DNA of 64,000 nucleotides from a bacterium (GCA_028824015.1 JAPPFC010000017.1:141945-205944), one strand, 5' to 3'; shown: positions 2,887-64,000, counted from the first letter of the stretch. Made by a program: numbers and translations. Notes: generated by a model from the sequence alone, not told the origin.

Positions 2887-5307
2887 ATGGTGGTTGCAGG
2901 GGTTCTGGGCTTGGTCCTGGGGGTTTTCGGTCCGGTGGGAGCGGATGGAAGGGGCGCATTCGGAGATGACGACGGTGACCCGCACGAACCGGCCATCGAT
3001 GCCCTGGCCGACGTGGGGGTCTTCACCGGTACCGAGTGTGGGGAGAACGCCTTCTGTCCCTCCGAGGAACTCTCCCGCCGGGTGATGGCGGTCTGGCTGG
3101 TCCGCCTCCTGGAGGATGACCCGCCCGCGCCGGCGGCGTCCCCAGGGTTTGAGGATGTGGGACCATCCCAGTGGTGGGCGCCATACGTCGACCGGCTGGC
3201 TGGATTGGGGATAACCCGGGGGTGTGCAACCGATCCGGACCGTTTCTGCCCCGAGGCTCCGGTCACACGGGGGCAGATGGCGACCATGATGACCCGCGCC
3301 CTCGATCTGCCACCCGCGGGAGAGGCGGGCTACGTGGACACGGCAGGGAGCATCCACGCCGCCAGCATCGACTCGTTGGCGGCCATCAGCGCCACGGTCG
3401 GATGCGCCGCCCATCCGGACCGGTTCTGTCCGGATGCGCCCTTGACCCGTGGAGAGATGGCCACTGTCCTGGCCCGGTTCTTCGGTTTGATCCCATTTCC
3501 GGAGTTCGACCCGCTGCCGGATCCGGATCCGCACCGGATCGCATTCACCAGGTATGACACCCGAGGCCAGGATGACGACATCGTGGTGATGGATTCGGAT
3601 GGCGGCAACTCTCGGGTGCTGGTCCACGGGGAGAACCCGATGTGGTCGCCGGACGGCTCCCGCATCGTGTATAACAGCAAGGGCCGGGTCTTCCTGATAG
3701 GCGCCGACGGGAGTAATCGCCGGCACCTCGGGAACGGGCGGTTGCCCTCGTGGTCGCCAGACGGGACCCGGGTGGCATTTGTGTCGAGGGGAGACCTCTT
3801 CGTGGTGAACTCGGACGGGACCGGCTTGTTGCAACTCTCCGTGGGTCGGTCCATCGACGACTTCCTGGCATGGTCCCCGGACGGGGAGCGAATCGCATAC
3901 CACAGTCACCCTCAGGGCAGTGTCAACGCCGAGATCTACCTGGTGAGTGCCGATGGTACGGATGACCGGCAGTTGACCGACAACGAATACAGTGATTGGG
4001 CCCTGGCCTGGTCTCCCGACGGCGCCACGATCGCCTTCTACAGCCACGGAGACATCTTCCTGATGGATGCGGACGGCGGGAACCAGCGACTGCTGATACA
4101 CGGCGGGTTCCCGGCCTGGTCGCCCGACGGCGAACGGATTGCGTTCTCCCTGCACGGAGAGGTATTCGTGGTGAATGCCGACGGCACCAACCAGCAGCAG
4201 GTCACTTACGACGCCATCTTTGACCAGGATCCCGTCTGGTCGCCTGATGGCGAACACCTCGCCTTTCAGGGTATCCGGGGCGGTGACAACGAGATATACG
4301 TGGTGGCTCTCGAGAGCGGGGAACGCCGACGGCTCACCGACAATCACATAGAGGAAAGCGGCCAGGTCTGGTCCCCCGACGGATCCACCATCGCCTTCAC
4401 CAGGTCCTATCGGAGTGAGGTCTTCGTTGTGTTTGACGACGGCACAGACCAGTGGCAACTCACCTACAACAATGACAATGACACCGATCCGGTGTGGTCT
4501 CCCAATGGGCAGTGGATCGCCTATGTGGGAGCCAGGGGCGGGGATAGCGAGATCTTCGCGGTGGATCCGGTTAGTCGCAGCCACTACCAGGTAACCGACA
4601 GTGACTACTTCGTTTCGAGTCCGACCTGGTCCCCGGACAGCTCCAGAATCGCCTTTACGAGTCGGGGAAGGGGTTTCGACTCGGAGATCTTTGTGGTGGG
4701 TGATGAGGGTCGGTACGTCAGACAGGTCACCGACGACCTGAGTTCGGTGGCGGCTATGACATGGTCAATGGACGGCAGTGAGGTCCTCTTTGCCAATGCA
4801 CGAGGTCGGCATCCGGGATTGTTCGTGGTCAGTGAAGATGGGGCGAACCTCCGAAAGGTGGCGGACGACAATTACGGTTCCCCACGGGGGATGGTTTGGT
4901 CGCCGGACCGCACCCGCATCGCGTTCGCAGGGTTCCGGGGCGGTGACTACGAGATCTTCGTCATGGATGCCGACGGCGCCAACCTACAACAACTCACTGA
5001 TAACGATGCGGACGACACCGAGCCGGCTTGGTCACCCGATGGGTCCCGGCTCGCATTTGTGAGCGACCGGGACGGTGATGAGGAGATCTTCGTTGTCTAC
5101 CCCGACGGGAGCTACCGTCGCCAACTCACCTACAACGAAGCATCAGACCACAGTCCGGCGTGGTCGCCGGATGGGTTCTACATCGCCTTTGTCGGAGATG
5201 CGGATGGCGACGACGAGATCTATGTGGTGGATGCGGACAGAGGCTATCTGGCGCAACTCACTCACAACCACTACGCCGACCGTTCTCCCACCTGGATGCC
5301 CAAGTAG
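2887..5307 (+). CDS. exported surface protein: three N-terminal SLH-like repeats followed by ~17 tandem PD40/TolB-type beta-propeller repeats
   Basis: Internal ATG at 2887 precedes a hydrophobic signal-like segment. Three ~55-aa repeats each carry C-x5-6-FCP...TRG(E/Q)MA. These are followed by many repeats of WSPDG-x-x-IAF spaced ~45 aa apart. Confidence 0.75.
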   Translation: MVVAGVLGLVLGVFGPVGADGRGAFGDDDGDPHEPAIDALADVGVFTGTECGENAFCPSEELSRRVMAVWLVRLLEDDPPAPAASPGFEDVGPSQWWAPYVDRLAGLGITRGCATDPDRFCPEAPVTRGQMATMMTRALDLPPAGEAGYVDTAGSIHAASIDSLAAISATVGCAAHPDRFCPDAPLTRGEMATVLARFFGLIPFPEFDPLPDPDPHRIAFTRYDTRGQDDDIVVMDSDGGNSRVLVHGENPMWSPDGSRIVYNSKGRVFLIGADGSNRRHLGNGRLPSWSPDGTRVAFVSRGDLFVVNSDGTGLLQLSVGRSIDDFLAWSPDGERIAYHSHPQGSVNAEIYLVSADGTDDRQLTDNEYSDWALAWSPDGATIAFYSHGDIFLMDADGGNQRLLIHGGFPAWSPDGERIAFSLHGEVFVVNADGTNQQQVTYDAIFDQDPVWSPDGEHLAFQGIRGGDNEIYVVALESGERRRLTDNHIEESGQVWSPDGSTIAFTRSYRSEVFVVFDDGTDQWQLTYNNDNDTDPVWSPNGQWIAYVGARGGDSEIFAVDPVSRSHYQVTDSDYFVSSPTWSPDSSRIAFTSRGRGFDSEIFVVGDEGRYVRQVTDDLSSVAAMTWSMDGSEVLFANARGRHPGLFVVSEDGANLRKVADDNYGSPRGMVWSPDRTRIAFAGFRGGDYEIFVMDADGANLQQLTDNDADDTEPAWSPDGSRLAFVSDRDGDEEIFVVYPDGSYRRQLTYNEASDHSPAWSPDGFYIAFVGDADGDDEIYVVDADRGYLAQLTHNHYADRSPTWMPK

Positions 5308-55793: not shown

Positions 55794-56390
55794 ATGATTG
55801 ACTCTATGTCTGTATTGACTGCTACTCGACGCCACCAGCTACTTAGAATCTTGAAGGAGAAGGGTTATCGCAGGCTGCCGGAGCAGGTCAAGCTGGCATC
55901 CGGTGAGTGGTCATTCGATTTTATTGATGGTAAGAAGGCCCTTGCTAAGTGGAGCGATCTCCGAGTCGCATGCGAGGCCATTGTCGAAGAAGTTTCAGAG
56001 GCCGGCCATCAGTTCGACGCGGTCGGTGGCCTAACTTTGGGTGCTGATGCTCTTGCTGTGGGAGTTGCTGCCGTCAGTGACACCAAGTGGTTTTTTGTTC
56101 GCAAAGAGCCAAAGAAACGCGGCACGCGACGTTTGATAGAGGGAGCTTCCCTTGGCAAGAAAGACAGAGTTCTCTTGGTCGACGATGTGGTGACAACAGG
56201 AGGGTCGATTTTCAATGCTCTAAAGGCAATTGAAGAAACGGAGGCCAAAGTCGTTGCGGCAGTAACGCTCGTGGATCGGGGAGATTCAGCAGAGCCGCGG
56301 TTCAAAGAAAAGGGTATTGCATACTTTCCCATGGCGAACTACAAGGATCTGGAAATCGAACCGGTTCGTTCTAAACGAGTCATTCAGTGA
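55794..56390 (+). CDS. type I phosphoribosyltransferase, orotate-PRTase (PyrE)-like, in a low-GC insert
   Basis: 198 aa; PRPP-binding motif VLLVDDVVTTGGS and an upstream KKRG...IEG block as in OPRTases. The gene and the ~70 nt upstream are markedly AT-richer than the flanks. Confidence 0.75.
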   Translation: MIDSMSVLTATRRHQLLRILKEKGYRRLPEQVKLASGEWSFDFIDGKKALAKWSDLRVACEAIVEEVSEAGHQFDAVGGLTLGADALAVGVAAVSDTKWFFVRKEPKKRGTRRLIEGASLGKKDRVLLVDDVVTTGGSIFNALKAIEETEAKVVAAVTLVDRGDSAEPRFKEKGIAYFPMANYKDLEIEPVRSKRVIQ

Positions 56391-56601: not shown

Positions 56602-57768
56602 ATGGCAAAAGGACCTGTAAGCCACATTTCCTCTCCCGCTGAGCGGGCGAGACGTTACAGAGCGCTGCGCGAGGCTATGGCCGGAGCGGGCATCGACGCC
56701 CTGGTCATCTACTGTCGCGGCGACGACTTCATGCGAGGCCGCGTCCAGTACGTGAGCGACATCTGGCAGGCGGCCGGATGGGGGATCGTGGTGCTTCCCG
56801 CCAAGGGCGAGCCCTCCTACATAGGCGATCCTCTTTGGGGAGGCAAACGCATGGCGACGATGGTGAACTGGATCCAGGACGCCCGGCACACCCAAACCCC
56901 CGAAGTGGAGATCGCCGGGATTCTCTCCGACCACGGCTACTCGAATGGAACGATCGGCATGGCGGGGCTGGCGGACATCACCACCTATGCGCTCATGAGC
57001 GGTCTGGGAAAGTTGGCGCCTGGCGCCACCCTGGTGGACGCCACCGACCTCTTCGACGACGTCCGGATCAAAAAGAGCCCCGAGGAGATGGAGAACCACC
57101 GGGAGACCTCGAGGATTCTCGAGCAGGTGTTCCGCAGCCTCGAGGCCCATATACGCCCCGGGGCCCTCGACATCGACGTCATGGCCGAGGCTCACCGGCT
57201 GGTCCGCCAGTATGGCTGTCTGACCGGGATCGCCCAGACCGGCCGTACCTCCCCCAGGGCCCTTACCGAGGGGAGGCACGCCCCGTACGAACGGGGCGAA
57301 TACCTCTCCATAGACCTGGAGTGGCAAGGCCCATCCGGATACTGGTTGGAGTTGAGACGCAATTACTGCTTCGGGAAGCCCTCCGATGAGGCCAAGCGCT
57401 TCTGGGAGATTCGATGTGAGGTCTTCCAGGCTTGCATAGACGCGATGAAGAGCGGCCACTCCTCCGATGACGTCCTGGCGGCCCGCGACCGGGTCAACGA
57501 CAAGTACGGCCTCGGAGGCCGGGAGTTGGTGTCTTACAGCGCCCACGGTCTTGGCACGGACTCCCTGGAGCCCCCGTGGTCGCCGGGGAAGGAGCGGCTC
57601 ATGGAGACCGACATGGTGATCAATCTCCATCCCCACTCGACCTTCAGCGATCCTGCTGCCTACCAGTCTGTGTCCGCTCTCTCGCTTGCCGACAACATAC
57701 GGGTGACTCCCACCGGCGGCGAGCGCCTCACGTACGCCGAAGACGTACTCGTCAACCTGGATGACTGA
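56602..57768 (+). CDS. M24-family creatinase/Xaa-Pro peptidase-like hydrolase (paralog 3)
   Basis: 388 aa; paralog of the other two, with a short insertion (TGRTSPRALTEGRHAPYERGE). Confidence 0.8.
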   Translation: MAKGPVSHISSPAERARRYRALREAMAGAGIDALVIYCRGDDFMRGRVQYVSDIWQAAGWGIVVLPAKGEPSYIGDPLWGGKRMATMVNWIQDARHTQTPEVEIAGILSDHGYSNGTIGMAGLADITTYALMSGLGKLAPGATLVDATDLFDDVRIKKSPEEMENHRETSRILEQVFRSLEAHIRPGALDIDVMAEAHRLVRQYGCLTGIAQTGRTSPRALTEGRHAPYERGEYLSIDLEWQGPSGYWLELRRNYCFGKPSDEAKRFWEIRCEVFQACIDAMKSGHSSDDVLAARDRVNDKYGLGGRELVSYSAHGLGTDSLEPPWSPGKERLMETDMVINLHPHSTFSDPAAYQSVSALSLADNIRVTPTGGERLTYAEDVLVNLDD

Positions 57769-57861
57769 GGGAGCGCCACCGTTGGCGGCCCCCGTCCGAG
57801 TCGAGGTCACCGCCATGGCGTTCCGGCACACGGCTCGTCCCGATACGAAGGAGGCTCCGAG

Positions 57862-58251
57862 GTGAGCATCGAGGCGATCAACCCCGACGGCCTGTCCGAG
57901 CCTCCCGAGCCCTACTCCCACGCGGTCCGGGCTGGCGACACCGTCTACCTGGCCGGTCAGGTGGCGTTCGACTCCTCGGGTGAGATCGTGGGCGAGACCA
58001 CCGGAGAGCAGGCCGAACAGATCTGGGGCAATATCGCCGAGATCCTGGAGGCGTGCGGGGGATCGGTGGCCAACATCGTGAAGATCACCTACTTCTGCCA
58101 GGACATCCGGGAGTTGCCCGAGGAGATGGAGGTACGCCGGCGGGTGTTCGACGGGGGTCCCTATCCGGCGGTCACCGCCTGCCAGGCGGCTGCTCTGGGC
58201 CTGCCGGGCCTCAAGCTCGAGGTGGACGTCATCGCCGTCATTCCACAGTGA
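57862..58251 (+). CDS. ridA: RidA/YjgF-family reactive-intermediate deaminase
   Basis: 129 aa, GTG start; VYLAGQVA...KITYF pattern of the Rid family. Confidence 0.8.
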   Translation: MSIEAINPDGLSEPPEPYSHAVRAGDTVYLAGQVAFDSSGEIVGETTGEQAEQIWGNIAEILEACGGSVANIVKITYFCQDIRELPEEMEVRRRVFDGGPYPAVTACQAAALGLPGLKLEVDVIAVIPQ

Positions 58252-58433
58252 GCGCCATCGGTCCCGAGGAGATGGCCGCCATGCTCTCGGCGGTCGGGCT
58301 GAATCCTGACGACTGGGAATCGGCGGAGTTGGCAGACATGCTCGAGAGCCAGAAGGCCGGGATCGACTCGCTGCGGGAGCGGTTGGATCAGACGGACGAA
58401 CCTGCGCTGCGGTTCGACCCGCGATGGGAATGA
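58248..58433 (+). CDS. small GatC-like (AtzG-like) protein, probable partner subunit of the downstream amidase
   Basis: 61 aa from GTG 58248 (GTGA overlap with the ridA stop); ends by overlapping the amidase start (ATGnnnnTGA). Its size, acidic helical character and position mirror GatC/AtzG partners of amidase-signature enzymes. Confidence 0.35.
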   Translation: MSAIGPEEMAAMLSAVGLNPDDWESAELADMLESQKAGIDSLRERLDQTDEPALRFDPRWE

Positions 58434-59842
58434 GTCCTCCGGGGGTCATAGCCGCACTGAGCCGACAGATCCGGTCCGGCGAGGTGTCGGCCCGAGAGGT
58501 TGCCGATGGGTCCTTGTCGGCCGCGGAAGACCTCAATCCGCAGTTGCAGGCCTTTGTGGTCATCGACCATCGCGGTGCCCGGGAAGCCGCCGATCTGGTT
58601 GACCGCCGCCTTGCCCAGGGGATCGACCCAGGTCCCCTGGCAGGCATCCCGGTGGGCGTTAAAGACATAATCGACATGGCCGGACATCCCACTCGATGTG
58701 GCTCTCCCGCCTATGCGGATGCGCGGCCCGCAGAGCGTGACGCACCGGTGGTGGACCGCCTCCGAGCGGCGGGGGCTGTGATCGTGGGCAAGACCACCAC
58801 CCATGAACTGGCTTGCGGGGTGGAGTCCCCACCGGCCTCCAACCCCTGGGACACCGGGCGGATCCCGGGAGGTTCCAGCGGAGGATCGGGAGCGGCGGTG
58901 TCGGCAGGCATAACGGCCGCGGCCCTCGGGAGCGATACCGGCGGATCGATCCGGATCCCCGCCTCCCTGTGCGGGACAGCCGGACTGAAGGGAACCTACG
59001 GGAGAGTTCCCCGCAGCGGAGTGGCGGCCCTCAGTTGGTCGCTCGACCACATCGGACCCCTGGCGCCCACTCCCGCCGACTGCATCCTCGTCCAGTCGGT
59101 GATCTCGGGTTTCCATCCTTCCGATCCCACCACCCTGGCCGACCGTCCCCCTGACGGCTACCCCGTCTCGGATGTCGGCTTGGAAGGCGTGCGGCTGGGC
59201 GTGATCGAGCGTTACCGGGGCCCGCTGATCCAACCGGCGGTGAGCGAGGCTTTCGAAGCGGCGGTCGGGGTGCTGGCCGACATGGGAGCGGAAGTCCTGC
59301 CGGTCGAGGTCCAGGAACTCGACATGGTGATGGAGGTGGAATACGCGGTGTTCAGCGCCGAAGGGGCCGCCTACCACCAGAGGCTGCTGGCAGAAGCGCC
59401 ACACTTGATCGACTCCGGGATAGGGGCGCTCCTGGCGACCGGGCTGATGATGCCCAGCGAGCGATACTTGACGGCTCTGAGGGCAAGAGGACGCATCCGG
59501 CAGGGAGTACGCGAGTGCTTTGAAGCGAACCGCCTCACCGGGATGGTCATGCCCACCCTGGCGGCCACCGCCGCTCTGAAGGACCAGGATTCCTTCGACT
59601 ACGGAGGGCCGAGCGAAGCTGTGATCTCGGCCTATGTGCGGACCACCGCTCCCTGGAACCTGACCGGCCTGCCCGCCTTGTCGGTCCCCTGTGGGTTCGA
59701 TCCCGCCGGGCTTCCCATCGGGCTGCAGATCATCGGCCGCCCACTGGCGGAGACCGAGATCTCCCGCGTCGGACAGGCATACCACACGGCTGCCGCCTGG
59801 GACCTGGTCCCGCCCATCTCCGCCGGTGGATCGGCCGCGTAG
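58424..59842 (+). CDS. amidase-signature (AS) family amidase (GatA/AtzE-like)
   Basis: 472 aa; AS motif GGSSGGSGAAV and catalytic Ser-cisSer-Lys context. Confidence 0.85.
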   Translation: MGMSPPGVIAALSRQIRSGEVSAREVADGSLSAAEDLNPQLQAFVVIDHRGAREAADLVDRRLAQGIDPGPLAGIPVGVKDIIDMAGHPTRCGSPAYADARPAERDAPVVDRLRAAGAVIVGKTTTHELACGVESPPASNPWDTGRIPGGSSGGSGAAVSAGITAAALGSDTGGSIRIPASLCGTAGLKGTYGRVPRSGVAALSWSLDHIGPLAPTPADCILVQSVISGFHPSDPTTLADRPPDGYPVSDVGLEGVRLGVIERYRGPLIQPAVSEAFEAAVGVLADMGAEVLPVEVQELDMVMEVEYAVFSAEGAAYHQRLLAEAPHLIDSGIGALLATGLMMPSERYLTALRARGRIRQGVRECFEANRLTGMVMPTLAATAALKDQDSFDYGGPSEAVISAYVRTTAPWNLTGLPALSVPCGFDPAGLPIGLQIIGRPLAETEISRVGQAYHTAAAWDLVPPISAGGSAA

Positions 59843-59865
59843 GGGTTACGCTCCTTCACCAGGCA

Positions 59866-60681
59866 ATGGAGATACCAGAATTTCGACCGCTGGGGACCGG
59901 AGAGGTCATCCGCTTCTCTTGGGATCTCTACAGGAGGCGGTTCGGGAGCCTGATCGGAGTCAGCCTCACCCTGTTGGCCATTCCCTCGCTTCTCCAGTGG
60001 CTTCCCGGCGTCGGCTTGATGATGAGCATCCTGCTGGTGTTTGCGGAACTCCTGGCCATCGGGGCATTCATACGGATCGTGGCTTCCCATTGTGTCGACC
60101 TTCACTTCTCGGCTGCCGAAGCCATACGGATGGCCTGGAGACAGTACGGGAACATGCTCCTGATGGCGGTGGTCTTCGGGTTGACCGTGGCCGCGGTTGC
60201 TGCCGTCATGACCATGATCGGCTCAGCCATCCTGGCCGTGGTGGCTCCCGGCTTCGCCGCGGAGGTGAGTTCCTACGGCGACGACCCCTTCTCAATGCCG
60301 GCCGAGACCTTGCTGCCGTTCCTTTTGTGGACCTTCGTGATGGTCCTCCCCGCAATCTGCTTGGCGATGACCTGGTGGGTGGCTCCCATGGGCTTGACGG
60401 TGGAGGGTGCGGGGGCCATCCCCAGCCTGGTGCGGTCATGGAAGCTGGTCTTGCCGAACCTGTGGCGAACCATCAAGGTCCTCTTGCTGGCGCTGCTGGT
60501 GGTGGCATTGCCTTTTCTGGTCCTTTACCGGGTCCTTCCCTACCACTGGGCGGTCTTGTTGCTCAACGTGTTCGGCTTGCCCTTCTCCTGGGTGGTGGCG
60601 ACTGTGCTCTACCTGGATCTTCGAGTGCGATCGGAGAATCTAGATCCCGGAGACCTGCATCAGGAACTGATCGACGGTTGA
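59866..60681 (+). CDS. hypothetical polytopic membrane protein
   Basis: 271 aa, ~6 hydrophobic helices. Confidence 0.5.
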   Translation: MEIPEFRPLGTGEVIRFSWDLYRRRFGSLIGVSLTLLAIPSLLQWLPGVGLMMSILLVFAELLAIGAFIRIVASHCVDLHFSAAEAIRMAWRQYGNMLLMAVVFGLTVAAVAAVMTMIGSAILAVVAPGFAAEVSSYGDDPFSMPAETLLPFLLWTFVMVLPAICLAMTWWVAPMGLTVEGAGAIPSLVRSWKLVLPNLWRTIKVLLLALLVVALPFLVLYRVLPYHWAVLLLNVFGLPFSWVVATVLYLDLRVRSENLDPGDLHQELIDG

Positions 60682-60765
60682 GTTGAACCTCGAGGAGATT
60701 CTCGAACAGAGGATCTTGGGCAGGCGGCTCGTCATGCCGGCAAGCCGCCTCTTTGTGGCTATGCC

Positions 60766-61014
60766 ATGGTGCAAACTGTGTGTATGAGGCGTATACATCT
60801 CTATTTGGAGCCGGACCTTGATGAGGCTCTGTCAGCCGAGGCCACTCGGTTGGGGACATCCCGGTCTGCCTTGGTCCGCGACGCGGTCCGGGCTTCGCTG
60901 GAGGCTTACTTCGATACTCCCGGCGATGCAGTTGACGAGTTGATTGGTGGTCTGGACGTCGATCCCGATGACGATCTCGATTGGGTCATATACGCGCCCC
61001 AACAAAGCCCCTGA
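60766..61014 (+). CDS. ribbon-helix-helix (CopG-like) putative type II antitoxin, orphan
   Basis: 82 aa; RIHLYLEPDLDEAL...SRSALVRDAV is a classic RHH; no toxin ORF downstream. Confidence 0.55.
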   Translation: MVQTVCMRRIHLYLEPDLDEALSAEATRLGTSRSALVRDAVRASLEAYFDTPGDAVDELIGGLDVDPDDDLDWVIYAPQQSP

Positions 61015-61050
61015 AACCAACGCGCCGCCGTTCCGGGCTGGTTGTATCCG

Positions 61051-62310
61051 TTAGCCGCCTTCGGCGAACTTCACGAGGGTCGTGGCGACTTCCTCCACTT
61101 GGGATTCGGTGATCTGGGGGAAGCAGGGCAGTCCCAGCATCCGCGACGCGGTGTATTCTGCGGTCGGCAACGAGCCCGGCCCGAGTCCCATCCAGCGGTA
61201 GGCGGGATGGAGATGGAGGGGCGGGTTGTAGATCAGCCGGGCGGGAATGCCCCGTGAGTTCAGGTAATCCTGGGCCTCGTCGCGATTGTCGACCATTGCG
61301 TTGTAGGCGAAGTAGACATGCTTGGCCCATGGTTCCTCGTGGGCGGCAATCACCGGGGTTCCCTCGAAGATCTCCCGGTAGAGGGCGGCAGCCCGTCGAC
61401 GGCCCGCGATCCGGTCGTCCAGGGTGGGGAGCTTGGCTCTCAGGATCGCCGCCTGGATGGTGTCGAGACGCTGATTGAAGCCTTCCTCGAGCACCGTCCA
61501 TTTGCCTCCGGTCAGGTCTCCGGGAAAACGCGGCACGCGGGGCGCATGGCCGTAATTGCGGAGTACGCGGATTCTCTCAGCCATGTCGGGATCGTTGGAG
61601 ACGATCATCCCTCCGTCGCCATAGCCTCCCAGGATCTTTCCCGGCGCCACGCTGAAGCACCCGAGCGGGCCGTAGGTCCCCATCCGTCGGCCCTTGTACT
61701 CGGCGCCGATGGCGAGGCAGGCGTCTTCGATCACCGTTATGCCATGGTGATCGGCGATCTCCATGATGGGGTCCATGTCGGCAGGGTGGCCGAACAGGTG
61801 CACGGGGAGGATCACCTTGGTGCGGGGAGTGATGTATCGCTCCAGCTTCTCGGGGTCCATGTTGAAGGTGTCGGGAGTGGTATCCGCCAGCACCACCTTC
61901 GCTCCGGCATGGGTCACCACCGAGGCGGTTGGATTGTCGGTGTTGGGGACGGTGATCACCTCGTCACCCGGCTGCAGGTCCATCGCCTCCAGGGCGAGAT
62001 GCAAAGAAGCAGTGCCCGAACCCACTCCCATGGCGAACCGGGCGTTCTGGTACTCGGCGAACGCTTCCTCGAAAGCCTCCAACTCCTCGCCGAGGACGTA
62101 GTTGCCGCTGGCCAGTACTCGCATAATCGCCTCGTCGATCTCGGGCTTCAGCGACTGGTATTCGGCGGCCAGATTGCTGCTGGGGACTGCCAAGGGGTGC
62201 TCCTCTGTCGGTTGGATATGCGAAATGTTAGCCCTGGGCAGGTTGCCCGGGCAATGGAAAGCACCATGCTCTGCCTGGATCTCGGGCAGGGAACAAGGAG
62301 ACTCGGCCAT
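61051..62310 (-). CDS. DegT/DnrJ/EryC1/StrS-family PLP-dependent (sugar) aminotransferase, copy 1
   Basis: PLP-lysine context SVAPGKILGGYGDGG; ~80% identical to copy 2; the true start is probably downstream of the ORF-track start. Confidence 0.8.
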   Translation of the reverse strand: MAESPCSLPEIQAEHGAFHCPGNLPRANISHIQPTEEHPLAVPSSNLAAEYQSLKPEIDEAIMRVLASGNYVLGEELEAFEEAFAEYQNARFAMGVGSGTASLHLALEAMDLQPGDEVITVPNTDNPTASVVTHAGAKVVLADTTPDTFNMDPEKLERYITPRTKVILPVHLFGHPADMDPIMEIADHHGITVIEDACLAIGAEYKGRRMGTYGPLGCFSVAPGKILGGYGDGGMIVSNDPDMAERIRVLRNYGHAPRVPRFPGDLTGGKWTVLEEGFNQRLDTIQAAILRAKLPTLDDRIAGRRRAAALYREIFEGTPVIAAHEEPWAKHVYFAYNAMVDNRDEAQDYLNSRGIPARLIYNPPLHLHPAYRWMGLGPGSLPTAEYTASRMLGLPCFPQITESQVEEVATTLVKFAEGG

Positions 62311-62422
62311 GGGCTGCCGGCCCTACGAAACTCGCCCGGCTCCAAGATCCGTCACGCTCGGGCCGAGCAAACCTATGGCGTCAGGAATTCGATGCCCAGG
62401 CTCTCGGCGCCGGCAGCCACCG

Positions 62423-62698
62423 TCAATGCCGTTCCGCTCCACGCATCTCCTCGAGCGCTGCCGACAATGTAGGAGACGCGGGCCGGCACTCTGCGGGAGG
62501 GGGCAGATCACTGAGCCTCCGGCGGGATTGCCGGGCCCTACCGGCTTGGATGAGGGCCTCGACACGGTTGTCTGAGATAGGCACCATTTGAGCGACTGGG
62601 CGGCCTCGAACCGTAATCTTCACGGAGGCTCCTGCCGCAACTCTGGCCACCACCGTCGAAGCATTCTGCTTCAGTGCCCGGATCCCAACTTCATCCAT
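62423..62698 (-). CDS. Phd/YefM-VapB-like putative type II antitoxin, orphan
   Basis: 91 aa; N-terminal ALKQNASTVVARVAAGASVKITVRGRPVAQMVP is typical of Phd/VapB antitoxins; no PIN/toxin ORF in the 112 nt before the next gene. Confidence 0.55.
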   Translation of the reverse strand: MDEVGIRALKQNASTVVARVAAGASVKITVRGRPVAQMVPISDNRVEALIQAGRARQSRRRLSDLPPPAECRPASPTLSAALEEMRGAERH

Positions 62699-62818
62699 GT
62701 GCTACATTGTTGCACGAAACCTCTGAGCGATCATGCCAAATCTGGATGTGGTCGCCGGAAAATGTCCACCACAGTGGGACAGCGGGGCCGGCGACCTGTT
62801 GCCGACCGCTCGAGTGCG

Positions 62819-63988
62819 TCAGCCGGCGCCCAAGAACTCCAGGAGCGTTGCCGCGGCCTCCTCCACCTGCGACTCGGTGATCTGGGGGAAGCAGGGTAGC
62901 CCGATCATCCGGGAGGCGGTCTTCTCAGCCACGGGAAAGGATCCCGGGCCGAGACCCATCCACCGAAAGGCCGGGTGGAGGTGCAAGGGAGGGTTGTAGT
63001 ACAGCCTGGTGGCCACCCCCCGCGAGGCGAGGTATTCCCGTGCCTGGTCGCGAACCCCTTCGGGGACCATCGCGTTGTACGCAAAGTAGACGTGACGGGC
63101 CCAAGGCGCCTCGTGGACGGCCGTAACCGGAGTGTCCGCAAAGAGGGTCCGGTAGAGGGCGGCCGCTCGCCGCCGACCTGCGATGCGGTACTCCAGGGTG
63201 GGAAGCTTGGCGTTGAGGATGGCCGCCTGGATGGTGTCGAGACGCTGGTTGAACCCTTCCTCCAGCACCTTCCATCCGCTTCCTCCGGTCAGGTCCTTCC
63301 CGGACAATCGCAGGCCCGGCGCATGACCGTAGTTTCTGAGCACCCTGATGCGGTCGGCCAGGTCGGGGTCGTTGGTCACCACCATCCCCCCGTCTCCGTA
63401 GCCTCCGAGGATCTTGCCCGGCGCCGTGCTGAAGCATCCCAGCGGCCCGAAGGTCCCCGTGCGCCTTCCCTTGTACTCGCCGCCCACCGCCAGCGCCGAG
63501 TCTTCCAGCACCAGGATCCCGTGCCGGTCGGCGATCTCACAGATCGGGTCCATGTCGGCAGGATGCCCGAACAGGTGGACCGGGATGATCACCTTGGTGC
63601 GAGGAGTGATCTTTTCCTCGAGCTTCTCCGGGTCCATGGTGAAGGTGTCTGCGGTGGTGTCAGCCAGGACCACCTTCGCCCCGGTATGCGTCACCGCCGA
63701 AGCGGTGGGGTTGTCGGTGTTGGGAACGGTGATGACCTCGTCCTCGGGTCCCAGGTTCAAGGCGGCCAGAGCCAGATGTAAAGACGCCGTACCCGACCCC
63801 ACCCCCATCGCATACCGGGCGCCCACATAGCGGGCGAAGGCCTCTTCGAAGGCCTCGAGTTCGTCGCCAAGCACGTAGTCGCCGCTGGCCAGCACCCGCC
63901 CCACGGCCTCGTCGATCTCTGTCTTCAGTGACCGGTACTCCGCGGCCAGATCGGTCATGGGCACTACCAAGACAGACTCCTCAGTCAA
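62819..63988 (-). CDS. DegT/DnrJ/EryC1/StrS-family PLP-dependent (sugar) aminotransferase, copy 2
   Basis: 389 aa; STAPGKILGGYGDGG; tandem paralog of 61051..62310. Confidence 0.8.
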   Translation of the reverse strand: MTEESVLVVPMTDLAAEYRSLKTEIDEAVGRVLASGDYVLGDELEAFEEAFARYVGARYAMGVGSGTASLHLALAALNLGPEDEVITVPNTDNPTASAVTHTGAKVVLADTTADTFTMDPEKLEEKITPRTKVIIPVHLFGHPADMDPICEIADRHGILVLEDSALAVGGEYKGRRTGTFGPLGCFSTAPGKILGGYGDGGMVVTNDPDLADRIRVLRNYGHAPGLRLSGKDLTGGSGWKVLEEGFNQRLDTIQAAILNAKLPTLEYRIAGRRRAAALYRTLFADTPVTAVHEAPWARHVYFAYNAMVPEGVRDQAREYLASRGVATRLYYNPPLHLHPAFRWMGLGPGSFPVAEKTASRMIGLPCFPQITESQVEEAAATLLEFLGAG

Positions 63989-64000
63989 GTTGCTACTGAG

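Follow-up and report, generated by a model that had tools for sequence, protein, structure and literature searches.

How two antitoxin genes, neither of them adjoined by a toxin gene, come to lie beside a tandem pair of aminotransferase genes is the question raised by the locus studied here. The locus spans positions 60,766 to 63,988 of a 64,000-nucleotide (nt) stretch of bacterial DNA (GCA_028824015.1, JAPPFC010000017.1:141945-205944), referred to as the window, and comprises two minus-strand genes for DegT-family aminotransferases (AT1 and AT2), a Phd/YefM-type antitoxin gene (phd) between them, and a ribbon-helix-helix (RHH) antitoxin gene that converges on AT1. An initial annotation had explained the arrangement by recent duplication of an aminotransferase gene in tandem, with the antitoxin genes being either toxin–antitoxin remnants disrupted by that duplication or members of non-canonical pairings. 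Our analysis leads to a different answer: the aminotransferase genes are old paralogs, phd is demonstrably the remnant of a toxin–antitoxin pair, and it is very probable that old paralogs together with stepwise toxin–antitoxin decay, toxin first, in a variable islet account for the whole locus.

A solo Phd/YefM-type antitoxin gene and the stub of its PIN toxin gene

The two features on which the argument turns are the following.

62423..62698, minus strand: solo Phd/YefM-type (VapB-like) antitoxin gene, 91 amino acids (aa), intact; PF02604, TIGR01552
62373..62426, minus strand: vapC deletion stub, 17 codons and a stop, LTV/AAGAESLGIEFLTP followed by the stop (slash, junction); 4-nt overlap between its start and the phd stop

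The phd product matches PF02604 (E 1.1e-8, 35.1 bits against a cutoff of 29.8) and TIGR01552 (E 2.6e-8, 33.1 bits against a cutoff of 20.8), in agreement with the Phd/VapB-like antitoxin that had been predicted between the aminotransferase genes, and its nearest solved chains are Mycobacterium tuberculosis VapB46 (6jqy, 4e-8) and chain A of 3dbo, which we take to be VapB5 in the VapBC5 complex. The window protein thus shares the PF02604 N-terminal domain of VapBC systems with a Phd/YefM-fold VapB (M. tuberculosis VapBC46 and VapBC5). An intact toxin open reading frame (ORF) was found beside neither phd nor the RHH gene in the ORF list, in six-frame translation or by tblastn of the window, as the initial annotation had noted, and it is comparison with syntenic loci that identifies what stands in its place. 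Scanning a single genome for each species gave 26 close loci (L002–L027), mostly from Acidimicrobiia / Candidatus Spongiisociaceae. Five of them (L002, L003, L005, L007 and L009) carry, right after phd and with a start that overlaps the phd stop, an intact ORF of 128–130 aa (LTLYYLDTSAAVKLL...RLAAGAESLGIEVLTP) with a Pfam PIN domain (E 3.2e-14), and the distance from phd to AT1 in these loci is ∼570 nt. A PDB sequence search with the VapC proteins of these relatives gave no match. The relatives resemble VapBC46 and VapBC5 in having a 130-aa PIN partner with a 4-nt overlap with the antitoxin stop, and a palindrome lies at the putative promoter of their cassette, whereas the PIN gene of the window has come down to 17 codons from which no toxin is possible, leaving a solo antitoxin instead of a toxin–antitoxin system.

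A six-way DNA alignment of the window with these five loci shows a single clean 339-nt gap in the window, in frame and covering codons 4–116, with both sides aligning well. The stub corresponds to codons 1–3 and 117–130 of the 130-aa PIN toxin gene, joined at ∼62419/62420 with 1–2 nt of microhomology (TTG ACG GTG / GCT GCC GGC GCC GAG AGC CTG GGC ATC GAA TTC CTG ACG CCA TAG, slash at the junction), and is thus a deletion product. The 339 nt lost include the codons for D7, E44, D92 and D113 (numbering of the L009 protein), which, assigned by eye, are probably the four conserved catalytic acidic residues of the PIN domain. When the L009 VapC was used as a tblastn query against the whole window at a relaxed E-value, only chance-level matches (E ≥ 0.02) and no second PIN gene were obtained.

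The same junction (TTGACGGTGGCTGCCG / CGGTATTGACGGTGGCTGCCGTCGCC), again beside an intact 91-aa phd, recurs in an independent ENA metagenome assembly (L080), reached by way of an RHH homologue, on which ground an assembly artefact behind the 339-nt gap was rejected. Positions 57681–64000 of the window are also identical to bases 1–6320 of contig JAPPJU010000005.1 of GCA_028820285.1. L080 is the nearest relative of the window genome, with a synonymous divergence (dS) in flanking genes of 0.17–0.29 as against 0.30–0.43 to the others, and because this relative has the same junction the deletion is old; the simplest account is a single 339-nt deletion in the common ancestor of the two lineages. 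The idea that the antitoxin genes are remnants of pairs disrupted by the aminotransferase duplication therefore stands in its first half for phd and its vapC stub and falls in its second, the cause being a later in-frame deletion inside vapC.

Loss of the toxin gene is accompanied by a changed pattern of substitution in phd. The window and L080 genes differ at 16 non-synonymous and 14 synonymous sites (non-synonymous divergence (dN) 0.086, dS 0.213, ratio of the two (omega) 0.40; binomial P = 0.02), whereas omega among the lineages with an intact toxin is mostly 0.12–0.25, with one pair at 0.35. Lineage-unique Phd residues number 10 in the window and 7 in L080, compared with 0–5 in four of the five intact-toxin lineages and 10 in the outlying L003. 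We infer that the solo phd is drifting under relaxed but not absent constraint. A further stage is seen in a sister metagenome-assembled genome (GCA_028820275.1) and the ENA copy of the same contig (L082/L083), in which the AT2–AT1 spacer is only 86 nt long and holds no phd, so that close relatives show all three states: the pair intact, the antitoxin alone and the site empty. As a baseline for pairing, a metagenome scan with the Phd alignment gave 80 loci at 49–70% identity, 70 of them with at least 420 nt of downstream sequence; a VapC-like gene lies near phd in all 70, directly after it in 68 and ∼160 nt further on in two.

A second solo antitoxin gene of the RHH type

On the other side of AT1 lies the second antitoxin gene, separated from it by a short spacer.

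60784..61014, plus strand: solo RHH (CopG/VapB-type) antitoxin gene, 76 aa from M7 as called by NCBI; the longest ORF starts at 60766 and has 82 aa
61015..61050, no strand: spacer of 36 nt between the convergent RHH and AT1 stops; weak hairpin only

The RHH protein matches PF01402 (RHH_1; E 1.3e-7, 31.7 bits against a cutoff of 20.5), and its convergence on the first aminotransferase copy is as originally described; the NCBIfam RelB-like match reaches 19.7 bits against a cutoff of 50, and a PDB sequence search with the protein gave no match. The spacer, for which PIN or RelE remnants had been considered, contains nothing toxin-like in six-frame translation and only a hairpin with a minimum free energy of −10 to −13 kcal/mol, and the same short spacer is present in L009. 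Forty-one homologues of the protein were found in a large protein collection, and the loci of seven were inspected. Solo RHH genes occupy the identical slot (DUF7847–RHH converging on AT1) in L009 (93–94% identity), L080 (82%) and L082/L083 (85%), which amounts to four other assemblies from three further genomes, and L014 has a degraded RHH gene at this slot. Canonical pairs are found at unrelated loci, in L081 (69%) and L165 (76%), where a 133-aa PIN gene shares 4 nt with the RHH gene, along with pairs that are apparently decaying: L166/L168 with a 100-aa PIN fragment, L167 with an unassigned 80-aa ORF and L164 with no called downstream gene. The PIN partner from L081, used as a tblastn query against the window at a relaxed E-value, gave chance-level matches only (E ≥ 0.02) and none beside the RHH gene. 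At the unrelated L166/L168 locus (3001–4439), a TacA–GNAT (TacT-like) pair is situated directly beside the RHH homologue and the truncated 100-aa PIN gene.

The RHH gene is under purifying selection. Omega is 0.19–0.33 among the four solo-bearing genomes at a synonymous divergence of 0.12–0.42, and non-synonymous changes are under-represented in four of the five pairs tested (binomial P 0.0001–0.0005). In VapB-type antitoxins the C-terminal tail is the toxin-binding part. The acidic C-terminal tail of the solo proteins (DAVDELIGG-D-DPDDDLD-VIY) is as conserved as that of the paired L081 protein. The window protein thus shares the RHH_1 domain and the acidic tail with RHH (CopG-type) VapB antitoxins of PIN pairs, but, unlike these, it and its counterparts in the four other assemblies have no adjoining toxin or toxin remnant, and AT1 converges on it from 36 nt away. 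It is probable that the solo gene is maintained for a function, most plausibly the neutralization of related incoming VapC toxins (anti-addiction) or a role as repressor.

AT1 and AT2 are old paralogs

The aminotransferase genes and the region upstream of AT1 are located as follows.

61051..62193, minus strand: AT1, DegT/DnrJ/EryC1-family aminotransferase paralog dependent on pyridoxal phosphate (PLP), 380 aa, TTG start after GAGGAG
62819..63988, minus strand: AT2, DegT/DnrJ/EryC1-family aminotransferase paralog, 389 aa, TTG start
62194..62255, minus strand: AT1 upstream region, with a putative promoter of its own and ribosome-binding site, GGCTAACAT...GAGGAGCACCCC-TTG

Both proteins are full-length matches to PF01041 (profile positions 3–359/360; Pfam E 7e-104 for AT1 and 1.5e-104 for AT2) and are 77–78% identical to each other, close to the ∼80% first given for these two tandem minus-strand DegT-family genes. 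Their best solved homologue in a PDB sequence search is 7b0d, a glutamine--scyllo-inositol transaminase (E 2e-92). No NCBIfam equivalog reaches its cutoff (the best, PseC, scores 241 and 235 bits as against 423.5), and thus no substrate can be named. In the protein alignment a CFS(V/T)APGKILGGYGDGG stretch has a lysine invariant between AT1 and AT2 (K192, AT2 numbering); the FS-x4-K-x7-GDGG stretch of both is presumably the site of the PLP-binding lysine. The full-length PF01041 match is shared with the DegT/DnrJ/EryC1/StrS aminotransferases (DesV 2oga, PseC, ArnB and 7b0d), whereas the neighbours of AT1 and AT2, in contrast to those of DegT sugar aminotransferases, are a phosphoribosyltransferase (PRTase), an amidase, RidA, an M24 peptidase and MscS, with no sugar-nucleotide pathway. 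AT1 orthologues in ten other genomes are 92–99% identical (omega 0.02–0.04), and syntenic orthologues of AT2, the copy found in nearly all syntenic relatives, are 86–98% identical in L002–L015, L023, L080 and L082 (omega 0.06–0.09). Both genes are therefore under strong constraint (omega 0.02–0.09), and we propose, from their sequences, that they encode functional DegT-family aminotransferases.

The longest AT1 ORF runs from the stop at 61051 to an ATG at 62310 and would encode 419 aa, including a 39-residue N-terminal extension; this version was dropped, as NCBI calls the start at TTG 62193 and non-triplet indels occur among the relatives upstream of 62193. TTG 62193 is thus the most likely start, and the phd–AT1 spacer accordingly measures 229 nt, not 112. 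The segment 62194..62255 hardly varies in any of the two-copy relatives, L004/L023 among them, whereas the DNA farther upstream is divergent with indels, a pattern consistent with a promoter role for this segment.

The age of the duplication is evident from several measures. AT1 and AT2 are 76% identical in DNA over 386 aligned codons, with 84%, 87% and 57% identity at codon positions 1, 2 and 3, and give an NG86 dN of 0.17 and dS of 0.85; the maximum-likelihood dS of 2.9 implies that synonymous sites are saturated. Self-comparison of the window resolves three collinear blocks of 78%, 80% and 72% identity at offsets of 1768–1777 nt and no near-identical tract. The 3′ coding ends, which had been thought near-identical in DNA, lie in the least similar of the three blocks (61030–61285 versus 62798–63053, 72%), and the final 30-codon windows have a third-position identity of 0.33–0.43. 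The longest exact runs, of 26 and 23 nt (the 23-mer encoding the conserved PCFPQITE), are about what chance would give, since by our own estimate ∼20 nt is expected at 76% identity over ∼1.1 kb. Gene conversion between the copies was rejected, no tract of raised third-position identity being present. Within single genomes the dS between AT1 and AT2 is 0.79–1.34 (four genomes), as against 0.28–0.51 for orthologues among all two-copy genomes, so the split of the paralogs predates the radiation of all these genomes. In agreement with this, each paralog forms a separate clade across many genomes, both are found in at least 10 related sponge-associated Acidimicrobiia genomes, and in a neighbour-joining tree the AT1 clade (bootstrap 100) lies beyond all the AT2-like genes of the group, a position with ∼50% support.

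That a recent aminotransferase duplication produced both copies and broke existing toxin–antitoxin pairs, as originally proposed, is in our estimation close to excluded. Such a course would suit the adjacency of the copies, their common strand and collinearity over the whole length, and the 23-nt exact match close to the 3′ ends; it is contradicted by a dS of 0.85–1.3, by third-position identity of 57%, by the low similarity of the 3′ block and by the separate conservation of the two paralogs, and five relatives with the AT2–phd–AT1 layout keep an intact vapC, so that the pair was not disrupted by the duplication. A different origin of AT1, as a lateral paralog from another sponge-Acidimicrobiia lineage inserted beside AT2, possibly together with a phd–vapC cassette, is possible and merits tentative consideration. 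It would account for an AT1 clade that lies outside every AT2-like and every non-syntenic aminotransferase gene of the group, for the presence of AT2 only in the syntenic L006, L008, L010, L011 and L013–L015, for the insertion-prone islet that flanks AT1 and for the phd–vapC cassette directly after AT1 in L021/L023. Against it stand the absence of mobile-element scars flanking AT1, the conservation of the promoter-like upstream region in all AT1 carriers and a GC content the same as in the surroundings. The branch position on which it leans has only ∼50% bootstrap, and at that value a tandem duplication in place is indistinguishable from the arrival of a lateral paralog by insertion.

The putative promoter and operator of phd

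Immediately upstream of phd is a short palindrome.

62699..62715, minus strand: 17-nt palindrome GTGCAACAATGTAGCAC abutting the phd ATG; putative autoregulatory operator with a -10-like hexamer

The motif GTGCTACAATGTAGCAC before the phd ATG is conserved in L003, L005, L007 and L009; in L002 its right part is visible and its left part N-masked, and a one-base variant, GTGCTACAATGTAGAAC, precedes the cassette of L021/L023. The -10-like TACAAT inside the palindrome ends 7 nt before the ATG, a spacing that, for an actinobacterium, suggests a leaderless transcript. In the window a T->A change (TACAAT->AACAAT), which gives one arm mismatch, weakens both palindrome and hexamer, and in L080 the whole upstream spacer is deleted along with the palindrome, placing the phd ATG 9 nt after the AT2 stop. 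At the L080 locus (ENA ERZ25069412 ctg853021, ∼4425–4933 in locus coordinates) phd would be transcribed only with AT2, and it is left uncalled by the gene caller. A strict sigma-70 and terminator consensus scan of 60600–64000 detected no promoter and one chance-level terminator, and for this reason our statements about promoters draw solely on conservation. The solo Phd protein of the window may still bind its own operator.

A variable islet around AT1

The conserved backbone of the region consists of genes for a CN-hydrolase, SDR, MscS, PRTase, AT2, AT1, DUF7847, amidase and RidA. Both paralogs are present in L002, L003, L004, L005, L007, L009, L023, L080 and L082/L083, AT1 only in L021, and the AT2 type only in L006, L008, L010, L011, L013, L014 and L015. 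The slot between DUF7847 and the last aminotransferase gene, which is AT1 or, in single-copy genomes, AT2, carries varied cargo, namely a Fic-domain protein in L007, L010, L013 and L014, a MazF/PemK toxin in L008, a TacA-like antitoxin in L014, a phosphotriesterase in L004, an IS5-like transposase with an AAA/DUF4143 ATPase in L003 and a phd–vapC cassette in L021 and L023, and it is nearly empty in L006, L011 and L015. Among 80 cassettes, that of L021/L023 (after AT1) is the sister of the window-type cassette (after AT2; bootstrap 54). One clade carries its cassette downstream of AT2 and the other downstream of AT1, with the promoter palindrome common to both and the two forming sister groups. 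These data are compatible with an ancestral duplication of the whole unit of aminotransferase gene and phd–vapC, which they do not establish.

Proposed stepwise decay, toxin first, and its alternatives

The history that we propose starts from AT1 and AT2, whose split is older than the radiation of all two-copy genomes. The two spacers that flank AT1 would have formed a small variable islet with repeated gain and loss of addiction or defence cassettes, and the AT2–AT1 spacer would have held a vapBC cassette made up of a Phd/YefM-type VapB, a PIN VapC (4-nt overlap) and an operator palindrome. In the common ancestor with L080, the in-frame deletion of vapC codons 4–116 would have left the 17-codon stub and the intact antitoxin gene. 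As loss of the toxin would be harmless and loss of the antitoxin first would be lethal, decay would run from pair to solo antitoxin to nothing. The RHH gene would represent a second VapB-type antitoxin, its PIN partner gone without trace, kept solo in four genomes.

Three other views of the solo antitoxins bear on this history. Non-canonical pairing, in which the modules are still active with an unrecognized nearby partner (the 17-aa stub peptide, the AT1 N-terminal extension or an aminotransferase), could draw on the fact that a 419-aa AT1 ORF with 39 residues reaching into the spacer upstream of TTG can be drawn and that the stub frame is open and overlaps the phd stop. The stub, however, is without every expected PIN catalytic position and differs between window and L080 at 4 of 17 residues; the non-triplet indels upstream of TTG among the relatives imply that the extension is not coding; L082/L083 keep both aminotransferases without phd; and all 70 family members of the baseline pair with a PIN gene, just as the nearest paired RHH homologues lie beside PIN genes. 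This second option of the initial annotation is therefore highly improbable. It is doubtful, with rather more to be said for it, that both solo antitoxin genes are pure relics, functionless and not yet erased, with no anti-addiction or regulatory role. A phd omega of up to 0.40, the 10 and 7 lineage-unique substitutions in the toxin-less lineages as against 0–5 in most intact ones, the -10 change in the window and promoter loss in L080, the complete loss of phd in L082/L083 and the degraded RHH gene at the slot in L014 would all be expected of relics. The full-length RHH genes at the same slot in four genomes (dS 0.12–0.42, omega 0.19–0.33, P ≤ 0.0005), with a C-terminal tail as conserved as in paired homologues, argue against it, as does a phd that is open in both lineages after a dS of ∼0.2 (P = 0.02 versus neutrality). 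The converse, that selection keeps both antitoxins either as anti-addiction immunity against circulating VapBC systems or as regulators of the aminotransferase pair, is also unlikely when taken as a whole together with the whole-unit duplication linked to it; the regulator role is raised because phd of L080, without a promoter of its own and 9 nt after the AT2 stop, lies inside the AT2–AT1 transcription unit.

Stepwise toxin-first decay is itself opposed by several points, to which the ∼50% bootstrap for AT1 belongs. The evidence for constraint on the solo phd is weak (omega 0.40, P = 0.02, 91 codons), and the gene may be a relic on its way out, given the T->A change in the -10-like hexamer and the loss of the promoter in L080. 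Among the relatives found, none has a PIN gene beside RHH at this slot, and it is from homologues at other loci that we infer toxin loss here rather than arrival of the RHH gene as a solo antitoxin. It is also possible that a cognate PIN toxin is encoded elsewhere in the genome and pairs in trans, the portion of the genome seen being 64 kb + 8.7 kb.

Relation to known orphan antitoxins

A survey of Klebsiella counted 2253 occurrences of orphan antitoxins (median nine per strain), and orphan antitoxins have been proposed to be degraded pairs, anti-addiction genes or genes with new functions (PMC7192599). Sponge symbionts are enriched in toxin–antitoxin genes, among them VapC (PMC5649159, PMC11706023). 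The present locus adds one more case of toxin–antitoxin decay, a process already known, and resembles the orphan antitoxins and anti-addiction modules of Klebsiella and Escherichia coli (PMC7192599; PMC10790755) in that an antitoxin stands alone in the context of a former pair; unlike in those catalogues, the lesion is resolved to the base and is common to two species-level lineages, the organisms being uncultured sponge symbionts known from sequence alone. Its value is mainly that of a correction, as there is neither a fresh duplication nor a hidden or unusual toxin system at the locus. Beyond this it provides a clean natural decay series in uncultured sponge symbionts, from intact vapBC through in-frame toxin deletion in two lineages to loss of the full cassette, along with a second solo antitoxin, RHH, clearly under purifying selection in four genomes. 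The persistence of solo antitoxins across species-level lineages is the point of note, and the locus offers a definite case on which to test the long-standing proposal that orphan antitoxins are kept as protection against incoming addiction modules.

Other genes in and around the locus

Two further genes recur near the aminotransferase genes in relatives.

L007 9502–10674, L010 7271–8440, L013 8028–9212 and L014 7264–8457: Fic-domain gene
L021 1540–6016, L023 and L004 4578–5960: region of an AMP-binding gene

The Fic-domain protein (∼390 aa, motif HPFRDGNGRxAR; Pfam-confirmed for L007 only) is encoded downstream of the aminotransferase gene or genes in four relatives, and in L014 its gene adjoins the degraded RHH gene and the TacA-like antitoxin gene. 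The AMP-binding gene, which is phenylacetate-CoA-ligase-like (460–490 aa), is inserted between the PRTase and aminotransferase genes in more distant relatives that have both copies or AT1 only; in L021, AT2 has apparently been lost and ∼4.5 kb of other genes gained there.

To the left of the locus, contig JAPPJU010000005.1 starts at window position 57681, inside a gene for a 388-aa M24 peptidase/creatinase-like protein (56602–57768) that is intact in the window. The window extends 57.7 kb to the left of this start and hence derives from a longer or different assembly than that record. The segment 55650–56400 has a GC content of 51–53%, as against 62–70% around it, holds a 198-aa ORF with a phosphoribosyltransferase domain (55794–56390, PF00156 2.9e-11) and may be a foreign insertion; a second PRTase gene is situated just past the window end, beside AT2. 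Between the genes for RidA (57862–58251) and the amidase (58424–59842), and overlapping both by a few bases, a 61-aa gene without a Pfam match (58248–58433, plus strand) occupies a position that is conserved in L080 and L082, and its product may serve the amidase as a small subunit or partner.

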